24,196 nucleotides of DNA from an uncultured archaeon (GTDB lineage: Archaea > Iainarchaeota > Iainarchaeia > Iainarchaeales > DATDZZ01). How positions within the stretch are numbered: position 1 is the first letter of the stretch; every line of letters starts with the position of its first letter. Under the pieces are notes generated by a model. That model did not search any database, was not told where the DNA came from, and was given only the letters and a program-made list of their open reading frames with translations. Where the stretch lies: positions 1-24,196 of the forward strand of contig CAYJVY010000002.1 of assembly GCA_964373795.1 (NCBI GenBank), read 5' to 3'. Below are positions 539 to 19,104 of this stretch, piece by piece. A program made the translations under genes and the position numbers.

Positions 539-1438
539 ATGAGTTGTCCTGCATGTGGAAGTAATAGATTAACCCATGACAATGAAAAAGGAGAAGTTAT
601 TTGTAATAACTGTGGAGAAGTTATTAGTGATGAAATGGTTGACTCTGGAAAGGAATGGCGTTCATTTGATTCAGATCAATTTGATGAAAGATCTAGAACT
701 GGAAGCCCAATGAAGTACGTGAAATTAAATAAAGGGCTTGTAACAATGATTGACAGAAGAGGAACAGATTTAAGGGGAAACAAACTATCAAGCAAGTCTA
801 GAGCTCAAATGTATAGATTAATTAAATGGCATAAAAGAGCAAGCATTTCTAGTTCAATGCAAAGAAATTTATCAATTGCTTTAACTGAGTTGAGGAGAAT
901 TGCTTCTTACTTAAATATTCCTGAAGAACTAATTGAAGCAGCAGCATTGCTTTACAGAAAAACAGTTAAAAAAGGATTAATTAGAGGAAGATTAATTGAA
1001 GCAGTTGTATCTGCTGTTTTGTATACTGTTTGTAGAACTTATAATGTTCCAAGAACTTTAAATGAAATGGCTGAAGCATCTGGTTTAACTAAAAAAGAAA
1101 TTGGAAGAACTTATAGATTCTTAGTAAGAGAATTAAAGTTAGGAGTTCCTTTGACTAATCCAATTCATTATATTCCTAGATTTGCAGCTGAATTAAATTT
1201 GAGTGGAGAAGTTCAGGAAGAAGGAAGAAAGATTCTTGAACAAGCAATCTCTAATGGATTAATTTCTGGAAGAGGTCCAACAGGAGTGGCAGCAGCAGCT
1301 GTTTACATTGCTGGATTGCTTAAAGGAGAAAGAAGAACTCAAAAAGAAGTTGCAAATGTTGCAGGGGTAACAGAAGTAACAATTCGAAACAGATACAGAG
1401 AATTAAAGAAAAGATTGAAAATCGAAGTATCTGCTTAA
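539..1438 (+). CDS. tfb: Transcription initiation factor IIB (TFB)
   Basis: N-terminal Zn-ribbon CPACGS...CNNCG, B-finger/linker, then two cyclin-like repeats (..LRRIASYLNIPEELIEAAALLYRK.., ..IPRFAAELNLSGEVQEEGRKILEQA.., RGPTGVAAAAVYIA). Length of 299 aa is typical. SD GGTGGTGA at 525-532, 6 nt before the ATG. Confidence 0.95.
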   Translation: MSCPACGSNRLTHDNEKGEVICNNCGEVISDEMVDSGKEWRSFDSDQFDERSRTGSPMKYVKLNKGLVTMIDRRGTDLRGNKLSSKSRAQMYRLIKWHKRASISSSMQRNLSIALTELRRIASYLNIPEELIEAAALLYRKTVKKGLIRGRLIEAVVSAVLYTVCRTYNVPRTLNEMAEASGLTKKEIGRTYRFLVRELKLGVPLTNPIHYIPRFAAELNLSGEVQEEGRKILEQAISNGLISGRGPTGVAAAAVYIAGLLKGERRTQKEVANVAGVTEVTIRNRYRELKKRLKIEVSA

Positions 1439-1471
1439 AGGGTTTAAACCCTTTTCTTTTTTTATTTTTTT
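1438..1471 (+). terminator. Palindrome plus oligo-T terminator after tfb
   Basis: Perfect 16-nt palindrome AAGGGTTTAAACCCTT (1438-1453) overlaps the tfb stop codon. It is followed by TTCTTTTTTTATTTTTTT; oligo-T tracts are the known archaeal termination signal. Confidence 0.5.
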
Positions 1472-4977: not shown

Positions 4978-7900
4978 TTAAGAGGTAAATTGGATTTGAA
5001 TTGATTCAGTTATGGAGCCTTTTTTTATTGAGACTTTTATTTTATGGCTTGCTCCGGGAACTAGTTTGCATGTCTCGCCTGTTCCAGGGCCTCCAATTGC
5101 ATAATTTATTTGTCCATTATTGATTTCTTTTCCAGTTGTTTTACATCCTTCTTCTCCTTTACTTGAATCTAAATCAATTACTTCTGCATCAAAAGAACCA
5201 TTATCTAATGGCTTATTTGGAGTGACTGTTTTGTCAACTATAAATCCATTTAATGGAATAACTGTATTCAGAGAAGAAGCTGTTAATGGAATCCCTCCTC
5301 CATAGGGGCAGTCAGGGTGTTGGTCAACTATTGGAACTGCACCTTGATCTATTGCTCCTTGAAATGCTTCTGTTACTCCACTTACTTGGCTTTGAGTATG
5401 TAAAGTAATTGATTTTCCTTCAACTTGAAGGCCATCTCTTGCATCAAATTTACAACTCCAAATCTCTATTGGCTGAGAATTAGTTGCTTTTGCATCAAAG
5501 TAAGCTGATTTAATTATTGAAGGATATTGAGGGTCGTCATTGCTTATATAAATTGAAGGAGTATCGTTTAAACTTGAAATAGATCTATTCAAGTTATTTG
5601 CGTTTTTTGTTCCTTCAATGTAAATTGATTGAATTGCATTATTTGGATTAGATGTTTTAGGCAAACCTCGATTAATAATTATTTGTCTTTGAGTATTTGT
5701 TGCTCCAATTAAAACTAGTTGGGAATTTTTTAAATAAAGATGATCCTTTAAATTAATTCTTCCATTAATTCTTGAAATCCAGCTATTAGTTAATTCAAGC
5801 ACTTCCCCTGAAATGTTTTTAATTTCATTCCCTGAATCGCTTACATTTGGATTAATTGAGGATTCGTTTTTTAATTCAAGTTTTTTAAATTTTAATTCAG
5901 CTGGACCAAAATTTTGAATAGTTGAATTATCTAATGAAATAACTCCATTTAAGTCAGTGAAATTAGTTGAAGCATTATTCATGAACTGAATAGTTGAATC
6001 ACTTAAATAAATATTGTTAGAAGATTTTAATTCATCAATTCTTCCATTTACGCCAGTAAAACTTATTTTGTTTAAAGAAATATCTCCTGCAGTGGATTCA
6101 ATTTTAAATGTTGCTTCAGGAGAAGTTATTTCGCTTGTTGCAAGGTTAGTGAAAACAATTGATTTAGCTGTAATGCTTGGAATTAAGCTTGCATCTCCAA
6201 AAAACACAGTTGCTAAATTGTTTCCAGTGAAAGCAATTGAACCATTTGAAGCAGTAATTGCTCCTTTAACTGTTCTTACTTGTCCAAGATTTTCAGAGTC
6301 ATTCCAAAAAGCAGGAGGACTAGCATTGTGAACTGAAATGTTTCCATTTAAAGCAGTAATGCCTGTAATTCCAGTTGAATTGTCCCCATCAATTCTAGAA
6401 TTAGATACAGTAATATTTTGAGCAACAGTAATTGCTCCTTTCAAGTTTCGCAATCCTCTTTTAGAGTCTTTAACAGTTAAAGATCCAATTGAAACATTAA
6501 TGTCTCCCGCTCCATTAATTGCTCCATTATCTTCTTCTCCTAAAAATACTCCAGTAACATTTAATCCATCTGTTCCTTCAACTTTTATTGCAATAGGGTT
6601 TGAAAACTTTAAAGTTGAATCAACTAAACTAGTTTTTCCTAAAACAATGAATTCTGAATCAGGAATGGTTTCAAAATGCATGTCATAAATCATTGAAGAA
6701 TTCACGATTAAATTTCCTGAAGTTGAAAGTTTTCTAACTCCTCTTAAGACAGCACTATTTAGAGTAATGTTTGAAGGCTTTGCTGCTTGATTTCCTGCAG
6801 TAGTTTTATCAAAATCAGGCATTGAAAGCTCGTAAAATCCTTTATCTCCAAATTTTCCTCCTTCAAATTTTAGTTCTCCATTAGTTGCAAGTCTTAAAGG
6901 CTTGAGGGAAGTGATTAACCAATTATTTGAAGGCCCTTGACCTTTGAAAGAAATTCCTTTTCCAGGAGCAGTTGCAGTAATCTCAAAATTCTCTGTTGCA
7001 TTGCCTCCTAGATTTAAAATCATTGGAGAATTAAATGTTCCAGCATTAGAGTTATCAAAAACAATTTCACCTGACTTGGATTTAATGAAATCAATTCCTG
7101 ATGAAGCATCACCGCTAAGCAATGCATTGAATACTTTAATATCTTTTTCAACTATTACTGGCCCTCCTTTAATGTTTAAAATTCCACTAGAAGGCTGATA
7201 TGCAGGCTGATAAGAAGGTGAAGCCTCTCCAATTAACAATGCTCCTGCAAGTACATTAACTGTTTCAGGAGAATTAATGGTTGAAATATTAAGTAAAGAA
7301 AGTCCAGTTGCTCCTCTAACAAACACTGGTTTTGGAGTAGTAAAAGACAATCCAGAAGAATTAAAGGAAAGATTTCCTGAAACATCAAGATTAGTTGTTA
7401 ATCCTAAAACATTACTTGAAGTCGCTGAAAAATTTCCTCCAATTAACACAGGCCCAGAAGAAGAAACATTAGTGAAAAGACCTGAATTCAAAGTCAAATC
7501 CCCTACAACATTAAAGTCCTTAAAAGTCCGATCAAAATTTGATGAAGAAATATTTGCTGAGCCAACTTGAAATACCCCTTCTCCTCCTGAAACAAATCCA
7601 ATAGTTGAACCAGTAGAAGTTAAAACTCCATTTACATGAATTCCTTCTTTTGGAGAAGCATTCACAATTTTACTGTAATTCATGTTTCCAAAAACAGCAT
7701 TAGTCAAAGTAGCATTTCCACTCACATTTAATATATATGCTCCATCAATTGAAAATCTGTTGTCACGATAAGAGTCTTGAACTCCAGTAATTGATGCATT
7801 TCCTTGAACAGTTATTGGCCCTGATTGATAGAAATGAATTTTTGATTTCTCCATATCTAAATTGCCTTTAACAATTATTTCAGGAGATCCAATGCCAAGC

Positions 7901-8421
7901 CATTTCAAGTAATCGATTGCAGCAGAGTCTCGCATAATTAAATCTTTATCTATTACAATTTTTTCAAATCTATGAAGAGAACCATATGGTCCAAAAGAAC
8001 TTCCAGGATCTGAACGAGCGCCTCGCAAAGTTAAAGTCCCGGGTAACAAGAAATCGCATTGACTTTGAGTTACTCCAATTGAGCAATAAATTCTGGAATT
8101 AGTTGTTTCAACATTCCAAGGAATTAAAATACTTGAATCGCTTCGCTTAAAATCTCCTCGAACATCTAAGTCAACGTTATTTAAAACCCATTTCACTTCA
8201 GTTAGCTGAGGAAAATCAGCTCTTGCTTTTACTTGCTGCCAATGATTATCAAAACTAGTGGAGTCTAAAAAAATTCCAGCAGTATTATTAATAGTGCAAA
8301 TAAAAACATTGTTCACTACGCTTGCATCATCGCATACAACGTATTGTTTATTTGCTGCAGCTGAAGCAAGTGAAATTAAAAGCAGTGAAAAAAATGCAAT
8401 TAAAAGAATTTTAAAATTCAT
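4978..8421 (-). CDS. Giant secreted beta-helix-like, N/S/T/G-rich surface protein (about 1147 aa from the ATG at 8421)
   Basis: The ATG at 8421 starts MNFKILLIAFFSLLLISLASAAA (signal peptide). The listed start at 8469 is a TTG, and a TATA box lies inside that extension. The body has degenerate approximately 20-25 aa units such as VSGNATLTNAVFGN, VVGDLTLNSGLFTN, VSGNLSFNSSGLSF, KGAITVAQNITVSNS, KGAITASNGSIAFTGN, typical of parallel beta-helix adhesin-like proteins. No C-terminal hydrophobic anchor. Confidence 0.8.
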   Translation of the reverse strand: MNFKILLIAFFSLLLISLASAAANKQYVVCDDASVVNNVFICTINNTAGIFLDSTSFDNHWQQVKARADFPQLTEVKWVLNNVDLDVRGDFKRSDSSILIPWNVETTNSRIYCSIGVTQSQCDFLLPGTLTLRGARSDPGSSFGPYGSLHRFEKIVIDKDLIMRDSAAIDYLKWLGIGSPEIIVKGNLDMEKSKIHFYQSGPITVQGNASITGVQDSYRDNRFSIDGAYILNVSGNATLTNAVFGNMNYSKIVNASPKEGIHVNGVLTSTGSTIGFVSGGEGVFQVGSANISSSNFDRTFKDFNVVGDLTLNSGLFTNVSSSGPVLIGGNFSATSSNVLGLTTNLDVSGNLSFNSSGLSFTTPKPVFVRGATGLSLLNISTINSPETVNVLAGALLIGEASPSYQPAYQPSSGILNIKGGPVIVEKDIKVFNALLSGDASSGIDFIKSKSGEIVFDNSNAGTFNSPMILNLGGNATENFEITATAPGKGISFKGQGPSNNWLITSLKPLRLATNGELKFEGGKFGDKGFYELSMPDFDKTTAGNQAAKPSNITLNSAVLRGVRKLSTSGNLIVNSSMIYDMHFETIPDSEFIVLGKTSLVDSTLKFSNPIAIKVEGTDGLNVTGVFLGEEDNGAINGAGDINVSIGSLTVKDSKRGLRNLKGAITVAQNITVSNSRIDGDNSTGITGITALNGNISVHNASPPAFWNDSENLGQVRTVKGAITASNGSIAFTGNNLATVFFGDASLIPSITAKSIVFTNLATSEITSPEATFKIESTAGDISLNKISFTGVNGRIDELKSSNNIYLSDSTIQFMNNASTNFTDLNGVISLDNSTIQNFGPAELKFKKLELKNESSINPNVSDSGNEIKNISGEVLELTNSWISRINGRINLKDHLYLKNSQLVLIGATNTQRQIIINRGLPKTSNPNNAIQSIYIEGTKNANNLNRSISSLNDTPSIYISNDDPQYPSIIKSAYFDAKATNSQPIEIWSCKFDARDGLQVEGKSITLHTQSQVSGVTEAFQGAIDQGAVPIVDQHPDCPYGGGIPLTASSLNTVIPLNGFIVDKTVTPNKPLDNGSFDAEVIDLDSSKGEEGCKTTGKEINNGQINYAIGGPGTGETCKLVPGASHKIKVSIKKGSITESIQIQFTS

Positions 8422-8448
8422 TAACCTTCCCCAGAGTTCATTAAAATT

Positions 8449-8460
8449 TCTATATAAATC
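8449..8460 (-). promoter_or_regulatory. TATA box candidate for the surface-protein cluster
   Basis: The minus strand reads GATTTATATAGA, centred about 33 nt upstream of the ATG at 8421. It lies inside the TTG-extended version of the ORF, which argues for the 8421 start. Confidence 0.45.
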
Positions 8461-8567
8461 CAAATGCAATTAATTTATATCATTATATATTTAATATATT
8501 TAAAACTAACGATTACAAGTATTAATGAACTCTTTTACATAAATAGTTGAATAATTTAAGTGATTGA

Positions 8568-8915
8568 ATGAAATCAGAATGGGATTTAAATAAAATTGCA
8601 ATTGCAATAATTGCATTAATTGTAATTTTGTTAATTGCATACTTTGTTTTTTTAACTCCAAAAGACAAGCAAGAAAAAAATAACATATTAAATGATAACA
8701 CTCAAGATAAAAACACTGAAACTGATTCAAAAAATACTTCAACAAATTCTACTAATGAAAGTAAAACAAAAATAGAGTCAAAGGATAAAAACCTTGAAGG
8801 AACAACTGTTTTACTGCCTGAGCTGCCAAAACAACCAGAAAAAATCATTACACCTGAAAACGTTAAAGAACCAGAATTAGGAAAAGACTCTGAAACAAAA
8901 CAACCTGCAAGGTAA
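8568..8915 (+). CDS. Small membrane-anchored protein with low-complexity K/N/T/E-rich tail
   Basis: N-terminal TM helix IAIAIIALIVILLIAYFVFL followed by a polar, probably disordered tail. The overlapping minus-strand ORF 8506-8745 looks like low-complexity noise. Confidence 0.55.
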   Translation: MKSEWDLNKIAIAIIALIVILLIAYFVFLTPKDKQEKNNILNDNTQDKNTETDSKNTSTNSTNESKTKIESKDKNLEGTTVLLPELPKQPEKIITPENVKEPELGKDSETKQPAR

Positions 8916-8977
8916 TCGTTCGCTCGCCGAGCGCGAGGGCTGACGTCGGCCTTCAGCTTCGCTGGATGAACGCGCTT
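8916..8977 (+). other. GC-rich (about 68% by hand count) structured non-coding island; candidate small RNA or cis-regulatory RNA upstream of ahcY
   Basis: TCGTTCGCTCGCCGAGCGCGAGGGCTGACGTCGGCCTTCAGCTTCGCTGGATGAACGCGCT. Hairpins: CGCTC/GAGCG (8921-8925 with 8929-8933); GGCTG/CGGCC (8938-8942 with 8947-8951, loop ACGT); TTCAGC/GCTGGA (8952-8957 with 8961-8966, loop TTC). An enclosing helix AGCGCG/CGCGCT pairs 8930-8935 with 8971-8976. Strand assignment is tentative. Confidence 0.4.
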
Positions 8978-9042
8978 TGAAAAGTATTTTAATTGTTTGT
9001 TTGTAATTTTTTTAGGAGAGTATTGAATGCAGAGGTTGGGAA

Positions 9043-10299
9043 ATGAATTTTGATGTAAAAGATTTAGGTTTAGCTGATAAAGGATTGCAGAGAATTGAAT
9101 GGGCTGAAAAAGACATGCCTGTTTTAAGACTGATTAAGGAGAGATTTGAAAAGGAAAAGCCTTTGAAGGGAATTAGAATTGGTTGTTGCTTGCATGTAAC
9201 AACTGAAACAGCTAATTTAATGCTTACCTTAAAAGCTGGAGGAGCAGCGCCTTTTTTGTGTGCTTCAAATCCTTTGTCAACGCAAGACAATGTAGCAGCT
9301 GCTTTAGTGAAATTTCATAAAATTCCTGTTTTTGCAATTACAGGAGAAGATAATAAAACTTATTACAAGCATTTAAATCAAGTGCTTGATGCAAAACCTC
9401 AAATTACAATGGATGACGGAGCAGATCTTGTAAGCGAGATTCATTCAAAGAGAACTGAGTGCTTGAAGGAAATTTTTGCAGGCACTGAAGAAACAACTAC
9501 TGGGGTAATTAGATTTAAAGCAATGGAGAAAGACAAGGCATTAAAGTATCCAATTATTGCAGTAAACGAGGCAGACACTAAACATTTGTTTGATAACAGG
9601 TATGGAACTGGACAAAGCACTGTAGATGGAATTGTTAGAGCAACTAATAGATTGCTTGCTGGAACAAATTTTGTTGTAGCAGGATATGGCTGGTGTGGAA
9701 AAGGATTAGCAATGAGGGCAAAAGGATTAGGAGCAAACGTAATTGTAACAGAGGTTAAACCTTTAAGGGCTTTAGAGGCTAGAATGGATGGATTTAGAGT
9801 AATGCCAATGCTTGAAGCAGTTAAAGAAGCAGATTTTATTTGCACTGTAACAGGAAACAAAGATGTTTTAAGAACAGAGCATTTCAAGGCAATGAAAAAT
9901 GGATGCATTACATGTAATTCAGGGCATTTTAATGTTGAAATAAATATTAAAGAATTAGAGGCTTTAAGTAATTCACGAAAACAAGTAAAAGAATTTGTGG
10001 AAGAATTTGAATTAAAAGACGGGAAAAAAATTTTCTTGTTAGGAGAAGGAAGACTAATTAATTTAGCTGCAGCAGAAGGGCATCCAGCAGCAGTAATGGA
10101 TATGAGTTTTGCAAATCAAGCATTAAGCGCGGAATTCATTGCAAAAAATCATTCAAAACTTGAAAACAAGGTTTATGTTGTTTCAAAAGAAATTGATGAA
10201 CAAATCGCAGCATTAAAACTCAAAGCATTAGGAGTAAAAATAGATGAATTAACTCTTGAGCAAAAAAAATATTTAGAAAGCTGGCAAGAAGGAACTTAA
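9043..10299 (+). CDS. ahcY: S-adenosyl-L-homocysteine hydrolase (adenosylhomocysteinase)
   Basis: N-terminus [28 protein letters not shown]. Also [30 protein letters not shown]-binding [17 protein letters not shown] and [17 protein letters not shown]. The 418 aa length is the archaeal short form. SD GAGGT at 9032-9036. Confidence 0.95.
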
Positions 10300-13017: not shown

Positions 13018-16000
13018 TTAATTCTTGGGTTTTTTAGTTTTTAATTCAAGAACTTTTTTTGAAGAAAATAAAAACCATGTAACCATTAAAACAAGCAATA
13101 CTATTGCAATAAAGTAAACAACTTGTGTTTCATCCAACCCTCCTTTTTTTATTGGTTCTTTTAACGGCTTTAAACATTTTCCATCAATACATAATAAGTT
13201 TTCTCCACAAGAAGTATTATCAGCAATTTTTTCAAATTCACATAAACCTGTTTTAGGATTACAAAAACTTGTAAGGCAAGAATTTTCCGAAGAACAAGAA
13301 ACATTTTCACACAAATCTTTAATTGCCTCTTGTTTTTCTTTTAAATTCAATAACATTGTGCTGGGAAGTGAATTAAATTGCTCTAAAGAAATATTTTTTG
13401 CAACAGAATAATTAATGTCAACAGATTTATTTACATCAACATTTGTTAATACAAATTTAATTATTGGATCCGCTTTAACGATTTCAAACCTTGTTTTACT
13501 TGAAACCTCATTTGCATTTAATGCAATTGTTTTAGGAATTTCTTCAATTAATTCAAGTCTTTCAATCAATTTATTTGAATTATTTTTTACTGTAATAGTT
13601 AAAACCGATGAAAAAGATATATTTTTGTCAACAGTTTTTTTTGTAACGTTAATTGATTTGTCAATTGAAACAAGTTTGTTAAATTCTTTTATTTCATTTA
13701 ATTTTGAATTTAATTCTGTTTCAGGGAGATTCAAAACATTTGCCAGCAATTCCTTTGAATTAATTTCATTAAATTCTTGTTTGGATTTTTGCTCTAAAAC
13801 TGTTTGAATCACTGGTTCAACATTGAGTCCTTTATTTTTATCCGAGATTTCTGTTGTTCCACCACTAACGCCCCCAGTTGTCACACCTCCACTAACAATA
13901 CCTCCTCCTGAAGGAGGAGATCCTCCTTGAGTTGGAGGCTGAGTTGAAAGCTTTACTTGGAATTGAATTGCATTTGAATCAGTCATTGAATTTCCAAATC
14001 CATCTTCACAGCTTACATAAAAAGTGTTAATGCCTTCAACTGCCAGTATATTAGTCAAATGATTTTTTGTTCCCTCACCATTTTCAAATTGTTTTATCAT
14101 AGAATTATAATCAGTTGAAGTCAAAGAATGCCTGCAAAAAGCATTTTCATTTGTTGAAGCAGTTAAGGTTACAGTTAAAGAGGTTTGATCGTTGTTCGGC
14201 CCAATTGAAATAATTTTTGGAGCATTCAAGTCTTGAATCACTAATCCGAAGTCACTAAAAGAATTCACGTCAACAAATGCAAATTCTTCATTTAAGTCAA
14301 CTCCAAAGCTATTGCCGTCAACTGAATACTCGGATGGATGCATCCAATAATTTAAATCAGAATTCCATTTAAAGATTAAAAAGTTTTCTGGAATGAAATC
14401 ACTACTAAAATTTAAGTCATTAAAGTAAACCTTTACTCTAATTTTTTCAAGTTTTTGAAGAGTATTGAAATTAGATGAAAGCGAAACAAATTTATCTGCA
14501 CTTTTTGTCTTCGGAGTTTTAACTGCATCTTTTACTTTACTTGTTTTTGGAGGGTTAAAATCATAGATAGTTGCATCTATAACTCCATTTGATAAATTTT
14601 CTTTGGCAAAAAAATCAAATCCAATGCCTAAACTTGATTTAATTATTTTATGAATTTTTCCTTTTTCAATAGAAATATTTTCATCTTTAGAAGAATTATT
14701 TGAAGGAATGACTGCAAAACTTAAAACATTTTTTAACTCAGTTTTTCTTTCCTTTTTAGTTGAAGCAATAATGTCAATAAAGTAAAGCCCTTTCTTCAAA
14801 TCATTTGAAGAAATTCTTGCAGCAAAAACATTTTGATCATTAAGAGTTAATGGAATTGATTTAATTCCTTTTTTCTTTTCTTCTTCTAAACTAATTAATG
14901 CATCAACATTTGTAATGCCATGAATTGATTCCACTTCGACTTGTAAATTAATTGTTTCACCTATTTTTGCAAATCTTTTATCAATTGAAAAAGATTTAAT
15001 TATGGGAATAATTTGTAAAAACGCGTAAACGGTTTTAATTGATTCAGTGTTGCCTGCTAAATCAATTGAATAAAATTTAATTAAATGATTTCCATCTTCA
15101 TTAATTAAAACTCTTGATCCGGATTTAAAGTTTTCATCAACTCCTTCAATCAAGTAATAAGTTTTATTTATTCCAGACAAATTATCTAGTGCATTTAATT
15201 GAACAAAATATGGAGAAAATTGAGGCGCTAAAGGAATTAATGCAGTTGTAATAGGCGCGTTAAAGTCAAGCTTTAATTCTTTTGACTTAATTGATTCAGT
15301 GTTATCCTCATTGTCAACTGAATAATATTTAATTAAATGAATTCCTTCTCTGGATACAGAAAAGGAATTTCCGTCAACCCAGTTTGCATCGTTTAATTTA
15401 TAGAAAGTATTTTTTACTCCTGTTCCAGAATCAGTTGCAGTTAAAACAACATTAAAACCATAATTAATGAATTCACTTGGAATGTTGTCATTAGTTATTG
15501 GAGGACTAAAGTCAAATGAAAGATTTAAGTCCTGAACTTTCTCAGAATTTCCTGCGCGATCAATTGAATAAAATTTAATTGATTTTTTTCCTTCACCACT
15601 TAAAACAACTCTGTTTAAGTCAACAAAGTTTTCATTAACTCCTTCAACCAATGCATAAGTGGCTTTCACTCCAGACAAATTATCTGTTGCATTAAAGTCC
15701 AGCCAAACTGTTTTAGCATTAACGTCTTGAGAAATCTTGTAAGTAGTTACTGGTTTAGTCCAATCAAGTTTAACTTGTTTAGTTTTTGGTTGCTCTTTAT
15801 GGCCTACCCCATCAACAGCGTAAAAACTGAAGTTATAGATTCCTTCATTTTTAAAATAATAAGTTCTAGTCCATTTATCAAATTTAACCCAATTTCCGTC
15901 ATCAATTTTATAGTAAAGATCTTTAATTCCAGTAGCAGTATCTCGAGGACTTAAAGTAACTGTGAAAGCAGAATTTACAAACCCTAAAGGAATATTATCA

Positions 16001-19000
16001 CTTGTATAAGGAGGAGAAAAATCGTAAACCACATTTACATCTTTTACTTTTTCAATGTTTCCAGCATTATCAGTGGAATAATATTCAAGTAAATGAGTTC
16101 CCTCTGATTCAATGAGTATTTTTGTTCCTTTTTTGAAACTATTTTTATCAGGATACCTGTTTAAATTGTAAAAAGTTTCTTTTACTCCTGAAAAATTATC
16201 TAAAGGAATTAAGTCAATGTTTAAAGCGGTTTCTTGAAATTGTTTTGGAGCATTATCAGTTGTTTGCGGAGGAGTATTATCTGATTTAAAAGTCATTAAA
16301 TCTTGTGCAGAGTTATTTAATGCATCAAATGCAACTGCTTTAAACGAATGATTTGAATCGGATACAAGGGTTGAATTAAAATCAAATTCATATAAATTTG
16401 TTTCAACATTAAATTTATCTTGCCCGATTTGTCCAACAAGTTTGCCATCAACAAAGAAATCAATTGATTCAATCCAAGAATCTTCATCGTCCGCATCAAT
16501 GCTTATTTTTTCAATTCCTTGAATGAATTCTTTTTTAATTGGCTTAATTGAAATTTTTGGAGGCTCTTTATCATTTGTGGGCGGAAGTCTCTTGAGTTTT
16601 TGACTTCCTGAAAGAGTTTCCCCAAAAGAGTTCGCAGTAAACTTAACATTTAATTCATTCAATTTCTTAATTGAGCCTTTTAAAGTCCATTGAATTGTTT
16701 TAGATTCATTTGGGTTGATTGAAGAGATCACTTGATTTTTGTCGCCATTAATTAATTCAAATCCTTGTGGAACACTAATTGAAACAACTGCATTTGAAAC
16801 AAAAAGATCCCCTTTATTTGAAAGAACTGCATTAACTAGGATTTGGTTTTTCTTTTCCTCGCTGCTTTCAACAGCCAAATTCAAGTCAGGCCCTAATAAA
16901 GGAATTAACTCTTGAGAAGCCGCTAAAGAAAATTTTTCAAAATTTTCATCAGGCGGACTAAAATTTTTATCAAACGCTTTAACTTTAATTAAAAATTCTC
17001 CTGAAGAATTTGATTCAACTTGTTCAACATTATCTAATCTACTAGTAGAAGAAGAAATTTCCTGACCATTTGAAAAATTAAATAAATATAAATCTAAATC
17101 ATTTAAAGGATAATAAATAGATGGAAACTGTGATCCAGAATAAATAATGTGTCTATTCCAAACAAGAGTTGCTTTATCTCCTAAATTAAAATTTGTTTTA
17201 TAAAACTTGAATTCATTTTTTAACACTTTACTTGAAAAAACAAAATTTTTTTCAAAAAAAGCTTTATTCAAATCAATATAACCCCAACCATAATGAGGAT
17301 CCCAACCCCTGGTTCCAAAATCCTCTGCAGAATTAATTAATAATGCTTTAACTTCATTTGGATTTAAACCAATGTCAGTTAAAATTGTTGCCGCTCCTGA
17401 AACATGAGGAGCAGCCATTGAAGTTCCACTAGCACTTTTCCATAAATTTCCTTGTTCCCAAAAAGCGTTAGCAGAAGTAATATTACTTCCAGGTGCAACA
17501 ATGTCTGGTTTTTTTCTTCCATCAACAGTTGTTCCTCTACTACTAAAATATGAAACAATATCATCAGCTCTATTAACTGTTCCCCTGTCATCCATGGATC
17601 CAACAGTGATTACATTATAAGCATCTCCAGGAGTACCAATTGTTTTCAATCCAGAACCAGAATTTCCAGCAGCAAAAACCAATACAACATTAAAATTATC
17701 TGTTAAGGCATCCATAAAACGAGTTGACCCTGATTCACCATTTGCATTACAAAGCGAGCAACCCCAAGAATTATTTAAAACATCTGCAGGAGTTTGCAAT
17801 TCAATTACAGCCCAACTTAATACCCTCATTGAATCAGAAAAACTTCCAGACCCAGTTTTACTCAAAAATTTTGCATTAATTAAATGCTTAACTCCTCTTG
17901 CAATTCCTCCATAAACATTATCAACTCCTGCAGAAATTCCAGTTACATGGGTTCCATGAAAATGCAAGTCATCAACAGTTGTATCAGATGAAAACTCTTT
18001 TTGATCAAAAACCCTTAGAATTCCTGAAATATTTTTTTCAATAGCAGGATGAGTTATATCAATTCCAGTATCAACAATTCCTAAATCTGCTTCTCCTCCA
18101 AGCAAATTAGCGTCAATCCATGTACGCAATTTAATTGAATCAGTAGAAGTTGAAAGCAAGGGATTAACTTCCTCAAAAGGCATAAGGTTTTCTTGAAGCA
18201 ATAAATAATTTTTTTGATTAAACAAATTATACAAGCTAGTTAACTGAGGTATTTGCAAACTTAAAAAATTAACGAAAACTTTTTGAAAATTATATTGAAT
18301 CCTTCCAAGAGAAGACCCTAAATCAACATTTTTTGGAACAGAAAAAATTTCTTCATTAGTGGAAATTGAAGCAATTAATTCAGTTTCAGATAATTCATCT
18401 AATTTATTTAATGGGATTTCGATTATTAATATATTCAATAAATTTTCTTGTTGTAAAATCGTTCCACCATTTTGTTGAACAAAATCAATAACACCATTAC
18501 TTTGTTGCTGTCTTATATCAAAAGATTTTTGAATTATTTCTTTTTTAATTGAATCTCTTAATTCATCAAGTTCTTGCTGGTCTTTTTTTAATTTAGTCAT
18601 CTCAGCTTCAGATAAAGTATTAAGCTTCTCTGAAGAAATTAATAAATTATTTCCAGTTTTAGGAAGTATTTCATCTGTTATTTCCTTAATTTCATTTTTT
18701 TTACTAATCAATTGATTTTCAAAATTTTCTTGAACTTCTTTTGAAATAACACTAACATTTTGATCTCTTAAAAAAAGAATCACTTGAATGACTTCAGTCG
18801 AATCAGGATTCGTATTAAATTTTTCAAGTAAATAACTGTCAAGTTTTAAATTTAAATTAGTCAATTCATTTGGCAAATTTTTTGACTCTTCATTTAAAAT
18901 TTCCTCAGCTGAATTAAAATCATTTCCTTTTTCATCAATTAAAATAATTTCTCCTGAATAGGTATTTTTATCAATTAAATATTCTTGTTGAGTTAAAGGG

Positions 19001-19104
19001 CTTACAAAGGCTTCCTGTTCGCTAGCAAAAGAATTATCCAAAAATGTTAAGAAAAAAAATAAAACAAGAAACTTTGCCAGCAACATTTTTTTTACATTAC
19101 ACAT
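13018..19104 (-). CDS. Giant membrane-anchored subtilisin-like serine protease (peptidase S8) with multiple beta-sandwich domains
   Basis: Signal peptide MLLAKFLVLFFFLTFLDNSFA. Catalytic triad motifs: GIVDTGID (Asp codon 18070-18072), HGTHVTG (His 17956-17958), SGTSMAAPHVSG (Ser 17419-17421). Downstream: a CARDB-like segment, an Ig-like segment, five ~83-aa repeats, Gly-rich hinge GGSPPSGGGIVSGGVTTGGVSGG (about 13855-13945), Cys-rich module (13174-13311) and TM helix VVYFIAIVLLVLMVTWFLF with a basic tail. Confidence 0.9.
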   Translation of the reverse strand: MCNVKKMLLAKFLVLFFFLTFLDNSFASEQEAFVSPLTQQEYLIDKNTYSGEIILIDEKGNDFNSAEEILNEESKNLPNELTNLNLKLDSYLLEKFNTNPDSTEVIQVILFLRDQNVSVISKEVQENFENQLISKKNEIKEITDEILPKTGNNLLISSEKLNTLSEAEMTKLKKDQQELDELRDSIKKEIIQKSFDIRQQQSNGVIDFVQQNGGTILQQENLLNILIIEIPLNKLDELSETELIASISTNEEIFSVPKNVDLGSSLGRIQYNFQKVFVNFLSLQIPQLTSLYNLFNQKNYLLLQENLMPFEEVNPLLSTSTDSIKLRTWIDANLLGGEADLGIVDTGIDITHPAIEKNISGILRVFDQKEFSSDTTVDDLHFHGTHVTGISAGVDNVYGGIARGVKHLINAKFLSKTGSGSFSDSMRVLSWAVIELQTPADVLNNSWGCSLCNANGESGSTRFMDALTDNFNVVLVFAAGNSGSGLKTIGTPGDAYNVITVGSMDDRGTVNRADDIVSYFSSRGTTVDGRKKPDIVAPGSNITSANAFWEQGNLWKSASGTSMAAPHVSGAATILTDIGLNPNEVKALLINSAEDFGTRGWDPHYGWGYIDLNKAFFEKNFVFSSKVLKNEFKFYKTNFNLGDKATLVWNRHIIYSGSQFPSIYYPLNDLDLYLFNFSNGQEISSSTSRLDNVEQVESNSSGEFLIKVKAFDKNFSPPDENFEKFSLAASQELIPLLGPDLNLAVESSEEKKNQILVNAVLSNKGDLFVSNAVVSISVPQGFELINGDKNQVISSINPNESKTIQWTLKGSIKKLNELNVKFTANSFGETLSGSQKLKRLPPTNDKEPPKISIKPIKKEFIQGIEKISIDADDEDSWIESIDFFVDGKLVGQIGQDKFNVETNLYEFDFNSTLVSDSNHSFKAVAFDALNNSAQDLMTFKSDNTPPQTTDNAPKQFQETALNIDLIPLDNFSGVKETFYNLNRYPDKNSFKKGTKILIESEGTHLLEYYSTDNAGNIEKVKDVNVVYDFSPPYTSDNIPLGFVNSAFTVTLSPRDTATGIKDLYYKIDDGNWVKFDKWTRTYYFKNEGIYNFSFYAVDGVGHKEQPKTKQVKLDWTKPVTTYKISQDVNAKTVWLDFNATDNLSGVKATYALVEGVNENFVDLNRVVLSGEGKKSIKFYSIDRAGNSEKVQDLNLSFDFSPPITNDNIPSEFINYGFNVVLTATDSGTGVKNTFYKLNDANWVDGNSFSVSREGIHLIKYYSVDNEDNTESIKSKELKLDFNAPITTALIPLAPQFSPYFVQLNALDNLSGINKTYYLIEGVDENFKSGSRVLINEDGNHLIKFYSIDLAGNTESIKTVYAFLQIIPIIKSFSIDKRFAKIGETINLQVEVESIHGITNVDALISLEEEKKKGIKSIPLTLNDQNVFAARISSNDLKKGLYFIDIIASTKKERKTELKNVLSFAVIPSNNSSKDENISIEKGKIHKIIKSSLGIGFDFFAKENLSNGVIDATIYDFNPPKTSKVKDAVKTPKTKSADKFVSLSSNFNTLQKLEKIRVKVYFNDLNFSSDFIPENFLIFKWNSDLNYWMHPSEYSVDGNSFGVDLNEEFAFVDVNSFSDFGLVIQDLNAPKIISIGPNNDQTSLTVTLTASTNENAFCRHSLTSTDYNSMIKQFENGEGTKNHLTNILAVEGINTFYVSCEDGFGNSMTDSNAIQFQVKLSTQPPTQGGSPPSGGGIVSGGVTTGGVSGGTTEISDKNKGLNVEPVIQTVLEQKSKQEFNEINSKELLANVLNLPETELNSKLNEIKEFNKLVSIDKSINVTKKTVDKNISFSSVLTITVKNNSNKLIERLELIEEIPKTIALNANEVSSKTRFEIVKADPIIKFVLTNVDVNKSVDINYSVAKNISLEQFNSLPSTMLLNLKEKQEAIKDLCENVSCSSENSCLTSFCNPKTGLCEFEKIADNTSCGENLLCIDGKCLKPLKEPIKKGGLDETQVVYFIAIVLLVLMVTWFLFSSKKVLELKTKKPKN
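15020..16280 (-). repeat. Five tandem ~83-aa beta-sandwich repeats inside the S8 protease gene
   Basis: Each unit begins D(N/F/W)(T/S/N)(P/K/A)P.T and contains D..SG(V/I)K.T(F/Y)Y and EG.H.(I/L).(Y/F)YS.D.AGN.E..K. For example, DFSPPYTSDNIPLGF.. vs DFSPPITNDNIPSEF.., and ATDNLSGVKATYALVEGVNENF vs ALDNLSGINKTYYLIEGVDENF. Confidence 0.7.

Follow-up and report, generated by a model that had tools for sequence, protein, structure and literature searches.

In archaea, transcription termination is driven mainly by oligo-T tracts and in general does not need an RNA hairpin. Among the GC-rich palindromes of bacteria, REP/BIME elements are co-transcribed and protect the upstream mRNA; REPs are multi-copy, about 35 bp long, have a conserved GTAG/CTAC end and go together with RAYT transposases. 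To our knowledge, nothing comparable to the mobile GC clusters of yeast mitochondria or the Rickettsia palindromic elements is known in archaea, and no GC-rich mobile or regulatory element family has been described to date in DPANN archaea. A different class of GC-rich RNA, the SAH riboswitch, has been described in beta- and gamma-proteobacterial lineages, where it precedes ahcY (PMC4239095). A GC-rich island located between an orphan open reading frame and ahcY in an archaeal genome shares some traits with each of these systems. We find it to be a genuine orphan hairpin, specific to one strand, that is ordinary in kind and unusual in composition.

The window, i.e., the whole stretch of 24,196 nt that was analyzed, has an archaeal gene content (TFB, RNase HII, TYW2, DUF63), and the TFB and SAHH homologues nearest to those of the window carry the labels Candidatus Diapherotrites / Iainarchaeum (DPANN). 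It also contains two very large ORFs, at 4978-8469 (1163 aa) and, on the minus strand, at 13018-19104 (2028 aa). The 1163-aa product begins with a signal-like helix, is N/S/T-rich and has no precomputed Pfam domain in the gene calls of the assembly, in which the contig end truncates the 2028-aa ORF; each is probably a cell-surface protein of this DPANN archaeon. The island and its neighbors are arranged as follows:

8568-8915, plus strand: ORF115, an orphan ORF of 115 aa (ORF call), with a TAA stop at 8913-8915
8916-8977, plus strand: GC-rich island, ~66-68% G+C within a 29% G+C window
8979-8992, plus strand: BRE/TATA-like box, GAAAAG + TATTTTAA, 51-64 nt before the ahcY ATG (sequence reading)
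8987-9013, plus strand: T-rich tract composed of T4 (8987-8990), TTGTTTGTTTG (8993-9003) and T7 (9007-9013)
9032-9036, plus strand: GAGGT, a Shine-Dalgarno-like motif 6 nt before the ahcY start codon
9043-10299, plus strand: ahcY, S-adenosylhomocysteine hydrolase, 418 aa (PF05221, PF00670)

The island (TCGTTCGCTCGCCGAGCGCGAGGGCTGACGTCGGCCTTCAGCTTCGCTGGATGAACGCGCTT) starts at the base right after the ORF115 stop codon, and 66 nt separate its end from the ahcY ATG at 9043. This distance agrees with the preliminary description of the locus, as does the base composition, with 41 of the 60 residues at 8917-8976 being G or C. When the whole 24,196-nt window is scanned in 60-nt segments, the G+C maximum (0.683) is reached at start position 8916, with z = 5.6 relative to the window mean of 0.292 (sd 0.070) and a binomial tail of ~4e-10. 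Six other places in the window reach at least 50% G+C over 60 nt, all of them within ORFs; the island is thus the sole non-coding GC patch in 24 kb, as had been proposed. The possibility of an assembly chimera, raised at the same time, can be dismissed: two Logan assemblies built from different runs, ERR3478686 and ERR4904391, match the window with 100% identity, island included, over 10.3 kb and 3.3 kb, respectively.

ORF115 itself is a predicted gene whose product has a hydrophobic helix at the N terminus and, after it, a K/N/T/E-rich tail of low complexity; among 5.8 billion proteins it has no homologues, the sole match being ORF115. On neither strand does another ORF of 20 aa or more run across the island. 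Past the TAA, the ORF115 frame remains open for 17 GC-rich codons (SFARRARGLTSAFSFAG) and ends with TGA at 8967-8969. ORF115 and the island lie in a non-conserved segment that adjoins a conserved ahcY-PfkB-ADK-TYW2 block. In the window, the region upstream of ahcY holds the orphan ORF115 and the 1163-aa surface-type protein, and two independent assemblies from a related population (L005 and L006) yield contigs that both break ~0.5 kb (~500 nt) upstream of ahcY; together, these breaks and the upstream content of the window make the segment upstream of the conserved block look hypervariable.

The computed RNA structure extends slightly beyond the island on both sides and comprises the following elements:

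8908-8979, plus strand: extended imperfect RNA hairpin (computed fold, -34.0 kcal/mol)
8935-8954, plus strand: apical 8-bp stem around an ACGU loop, GAGGGCUG / CGGCCUUC
8919-8974, plus strand: imperfect direct repeat inside the island, TTCGCTCGCCGAGCGCG (8919-8935) / TTCGCTGGATGAACGCG (8958-8974)

The predicted hairpin has 28 pairs, 7 of them G-U, is capped by the ACGU loop and accounts for 46% of the computed ensemble; its lower stem shares sequence with the final codons of ORF115 and with the TAA stop. The same hairpin is the minimum free energy structure in 196-, 301- and 478-nt contexts, and the first 15 suboptimal structures within 3 kcal/mol are all variations on this fold. The complementary segments from which the preliminary description had built mutually exclusive or pseudoknot-capable stems are all present in the sequence, but the proposed competition among them does not hold up: the three-hairpin model reaches -17.8 kcal/mol and the enclosing helix with two hairpins -20.8 kcal/mol, so that the single -34.0 kcal/mol hairpin beats these alternatives by 13-16 kcal/mol and dominates with no near competitor. 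The two 17-nt copies of the direct repeat, identical at 13 of 17 positions and located on either side of the apical stem, make up a two-copy family and may be similar by chance.

The energy of the hairpin is modestly better than that of dinucleotide shuffles (z = -2.1, p = 0.027; 2000 shuffles), and GC-rich sequence reaches ~-27 kcal/mol anyway. The difference between the strands is more telling. The minus strand of the island folds to only -20.3 kcal/mol, and the resulting gap of -13.7 kcal/mol compares with -4.3 +/- 2.8 kcal/mol in shuffles, just 1 of 2000 being as extreme. This asymmetry argues that the pairing is a property of the RNA of the plus strand, which is sense for both flanking genes, and the 7 G-U pairs likewise make the hairpin specific to the sense strand. 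The description of the island as a genuine, isolated, GC-rich structure-forming element thus stands and can be narrowed to the RNA of the plus strand.

The same symmetry could in principle be read in double-stranded DNA, since the apical stem at 8935-8954 corresponds to a near-palindrome (an inverted repeat) centered on GACGTC. Together with CGCTCG-C-CGAGCG and CAGC-TTC-GCTG, GACGTC could form a protein-binding site, either an activator or operator site upstream of ahcY or a recombination site, and these short palindromes are found 45-70 bp upstream of the TATA-like box. As DNA, however, the long pairing contains 7 G-T mismatches, and its symmetry therefore makes better sense as RNA on one strand; a similar site is absent before ahcY in relatives, and 68% G+C over 60 bp would be rare for a binding site in a 29% G+C genome. 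We consider a DNA-level function very unlikely.

Being GC-rich and located upstream of ahcY on the same strand, the island resembles the SAH riboswitch (RF01057), and a few of its short words look like the riboswitch blocks listed in the preliminary description, which proposed a riboswitch-like element. An ahcY leader of this kind, whether an SAH riboswitch or a previously undescribed RNA that senses SAH/SAM, would be transcribed from an upstream start, with the hairpin as its expression platform. In its favor, the island ends only 66 nt upstream of ahcY, SAH riboswitches do precede ahcY in beta-/gamma-proteobacteria (PMC4239095), and a hairpin with U-rich sequence behind it might in principle limit read-through by attenuation. 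Covariance models give no support to this idea. At the gathering threshold, Rfam 15 cmscan returns 0 matches in the whole window; a permissive search of 8850-9080 on both strands (E<=10) finds neither RF01057 nor any SAM/SAH class, and yields only four junk matches with E = 1.3-9.3. The SAH riboswitch family is bacterial, found in beta-/gamma-proteobacterial lineages (PMC4239095), whereas the host of the island is an archaeon. Furthermore, the island forms a simple hairpin instead of a pseudoknot with competing states, and with no alternative fold within ~13 kcal/mol there is no competing state for a switch to adopt.

The position of the island argues in the same direction. SAH riboswitches belong to the transcript that they regulate, being part of the 5' UTR of ahcY, metF or metH. 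The TATA-like box between the island and ahcY, pointed out as a caveat in the preliminary description, is indeed present at 8979-8992 and is the predicted ahcY promoter; AGGAGAG follows between T7 (9007-9013) and GAGGT (9032-9036). Other genes in the window have TATA-like boxes at similar distances, in the same layout. In the relatives L004 and L005/L006, whose SAHH proteins are 82% and 75% identical to that of the window, respectively, a TTTTATA-type box lies ~45-55 nt upstream of ahcY, and in L004 GAGGT stands just before the start codon, as it does here. With the box and GAGGT located between the island and ahcY and spaced as in relatives, transcription of ahcY would start near 9015, and the island would lie outside the predicted ahcY transcript. 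Conversely, a promoter-like TATA is absent 25-35 nt upstream of the island, where the sequence is ORF115 coding sequence.

Nor is the island conserved with ahcY: the five related lineages examined (L004, L005/L006, L132, L133 and L134) have neither a GC island nor a similar leader upstream of ahcY, which argues that the island is not an ahcY leader. Without an RF01057 match or conservation, and with a doubtful position relative to the transcript, the island is not classed as a riboswitch, and a role as a cis-regulatory leader of ahcY is very improbable.

Other known RNAs fare no better. ARAGORN finds no tRNA in the island, and the Rfam 15 classes without a match include tRNA, rRNA fragments, SRP, RNase P, C/D and H/ACA sRNAs, ribozymes and the group II intron. 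Reading the sequence against the fold also eliminates a series of motifs: a split-tRNA half (the would-be D-loop has 3 nt only and the T-loop is absent), a C/D box sRNA (the RUGAUGA...CUGA pair is absent from the ends), an H/ACA sRNA (neither a pocket nor ACA), a K-turn (tandem G-A pairs beside a 3-nt bulge are absent) and an archaeal SECIS element (the GAA/A loop is absent and the stop codon is UAA). The hammerhead core, group II domain V and the BHB motif do not fit the fold either.

The preliminary description had also considered, as a caveat, that the element might form part of the 3' end of the transcript from 8568-8915. This suggestion fits best, with the TATA-like box separating the island from ahcY: a stable stem-loop on the sense strand overlaps the TAA stop of ORF115 (8913-8915), and the T-runs at 8987-9013, candidate archaeal oligo-T termination signals in light of what is generally known about archaeal termination, stand 8-34 nt past the hairpin. 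Hairpins followed by T-runs recur at gene ends in this lineage. After TFB in the window (1437-1463), the hairpin AAAGGGTTTAAACCCTTT (1437-1454) is followed by TCTTTTTTT; after TFB in the relative L262 (~2444-2482), the hairpin AAAGGAATCGCAAGATTCCTTT, whose stem differs from that in the window, is followed by CTTTTTC...TTTTTTT; and in L004 a hairpin with T7 is found downstream of ahcY (L004 2313-2349). These cases suggest that the DPANN lineage of the window uses bacterial-style hairpin + oligo-T 3' ends. Since the island is likewise placed after ORF115 and before T-runs, a 3'-end stem-loop of the ORF115 transcript, serving as a terminator, stabilizer or insulator, is its best explanation, one that we hold tentatively and at somewhat less than even odds.

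In the mechanism that we propose, RNAP would pass the ORF115 stop codon, transcribe the hairpin and terminate at the T-runs. The stable hairpin would then cap the 3' end of the transcript, where it may help termination along, keep 3'->5' exonucleases out and insulate the nearby downstream ahcY promoter from read-through. The ahcY gene would be transcribed separately from its own BRE/TATA (8979-8992), producing an mRNA with a 5' UTR of ~28 nt that contains GAGGT.

Several observations fit this mechanism less well. Like bacterial rho-independent terminators and the hairpin + oligo-T ends of some archaea, the island is a GC-rich sense-strand stem-loop at a stop codon with T-rich sequence after it, and TFB and ahcY are followed by such motifs in the same lineage. 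Those 3' hairpins, however, have only 7-9 bp and a G+C content that is moderate or low (AT-rich), whereas that of the island, with 28 bp over 72 nt, is far longer and GC-richer, and neither its length nor its extreme G+C is accounted for by a 3'-end function. Just three U residues (TTT) directly follow the stem, T4/TTGTTTGTTTG/T7 come 8-34 nt on, and a terminator consensus scan does not call the island. In addition, the fold energy alone is only modestly better than chance for this composition, as noted above, and ORF115 is an orphan gene known from prediction.

Searches for homologues place the island itself among orphans. The apical 20-mer GAGGGCTGACGTCGGCCTTC is found in 4 of 185,579 species genomes, all of them Acidimicrobiia MAGs that share one orthologous locus. 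These matches (L007:3400-3440 and the orthologous sites in L008-L010) extend over 21-22 nt only, in flanks unrelated to the window, and we judge them to be due to chance, their number being about that expected for a GC-rich 20-mer. In the Acidimicrobiia locus, which has no Rfam match, the 20-mer is embedded in a direct repeat, CCTTCGAGGGC-TGACGTCGG-CCTTCGAGGGC. A 22-mer of the island has 0 matches in JGI metagenomes. An 18-mer has at least 120; among the matches listed, the contigs are GC-rich (median 66% G+C) and none of the matches extends beyond 23 nt. Four viral scans produced 0, 0, one chance match in coding sequence and at least 120 chance matches, and blastn against phages and plasmids gave only matches with E = 0.7-9 from GC-rich hosts. 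Taken together, the genome, metagenome, viral, phage and plasmid searches yielded no homologue, and ~200 kb of related sequence contains no copy, bar one doubtful relative in L004. By these sequence comparisons, the island appears to be an orphan restricted to its lineage.

An orphan with no conservation, located in a lineage-variable segment beside the equally orphan ORF115, could be a relic without a function, a small fragment of GC-rich DNA, foreign or decayed (e.g., filler at a repair or recombination junction), that pairs with itself by chance. The modest fold statistics agree with this idea, given that random GC-rich sequence folds to ~-27 kcal/mol and the island attains p = 0.027. Yet the strand asymmetry of the fold, matched in 1 of 2000 shuffles, is unexpected for neutral DNA, no collection searched contains a donor match longer than 21-23 nt, and an unselected patch of 68% G+C should erode under AT pressure in a 29% G+C genome. 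A relic thus seems unlikely, if somewhat less so than a protein-binding site.

The one possible relative of the island is found in the closest genome to the window, GCA_030650135.1, of which L004 is a part. A GC island at L004 2229-2310, with a maximum G+C of 0.683, begins immediately past the ahcY stop codon, at the next base, and precedes the hairpin and T7 described above. Its minus strand aligns with the plus strand of the window island along most of the latter, with TCGTTCGCCGAGC, GGCTGA, GGCCT and ACGC as shared blocks (z = 3.7-4.3, p ~0.001-0.002 vs dinucleotide shuffles), whereas its plus strand does not align. The minus strand is also the better-folding strand of the L004 island. Rfam and ARAGORN find no known RNA family and no tRNA, respectively, in the L004 island. 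Measured against real GC-rich DNA segments of matched G+C, the similarity weakens to p ~0.01 per strand; the RNAalifold consensus of the pair is only -11.95 kcal/mol, and the two predicted structures do not correspond. We regard this sequence similarity as suggestive only.

Should the resemblance be real, the island might belong to a small lineage-specific family, either a mobile palindromic GC cluster or REP-like insertion or a small RNA gene, that lands in AT-rich intergenic DNA beside stop codons; the L004 copy would sit on the other side of ahcY in inverted orientation. Apart from the strand-matched alignment and folding, such a family is favored by the presence of a GC island next to ahcY in both the window and L004 (SAHH 82% identical), by the absence of non-coding GC islands from ~130 kb of other Iainarchaeial contigs and from another contig of the L004 genome, and by the non-conserved segment that adjoins the ahcY-PfkB-ADK-TYW2 block. 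The expected signs of mobility are missing, however. The island is single in the 24-kb window, where not even a 10-mer of it recurs elsewhere; no clear target-site duplication flanks 8916-8977, and its annotated neighbors include no transposase. A covariance model of the window/L004 pair finds no further match in 223 kb (the window and related loci), in which the doubtful L004 relative is the only other candidate copy, and scanning genomes, metagenomes and viral contigs for k-mers of the island produced nothing beyond chance matches in GC-rich DNA.

Comparison with described mobile elements is similarly divided. Like bacterial REP/BIME elements, the island is an imperfect GC-rich palindrome just past a stop codon, but it is single in 24 kb, has neither GTAG/CTAC nor a nearby transposase and resides in an archaeon. 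With yeast mitochondrial GC clusters and Rickettsia palindromic elements, it shares isolation, self-complementarity and G+C-richness in a very AT-rich genome, and possibly a related patch elsewhere in a sister genome (L004); it differs from them in lacking multiple copies and target duplication, and the L004 similarity stands at p ~0.01. A family of this general kind is possible, although we would not expect it. A more specific version, in which the window (plus) and L004 (minus) islands are diverged copies of an undescribed GC-rich structured family in Iainarchaeia (DPANN) that stays adjacent to ahcY while changing side and orientation, and represents an archaeal counterpart of mobile GC clusters and REPs or a small RNA functionally tied to the methyl cycle, is improbable.

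A stem-loop at the 3' end of the ORF115 transcript, the explanation that we prefer, would carry little importance if true: it would be another gene-end stem-loop, noteworthy for its extreme G+C in a 29% G+C DPANN genome. The locus also offers a lesson, namely that GC-richness and proximity to ahcY are no evidence for an SAH riboswitch. Further copies of the island, if found, would raise its importance. This archaeal lineage also appears to make use of 3' ends in which a hairpin is followed by a T-run.
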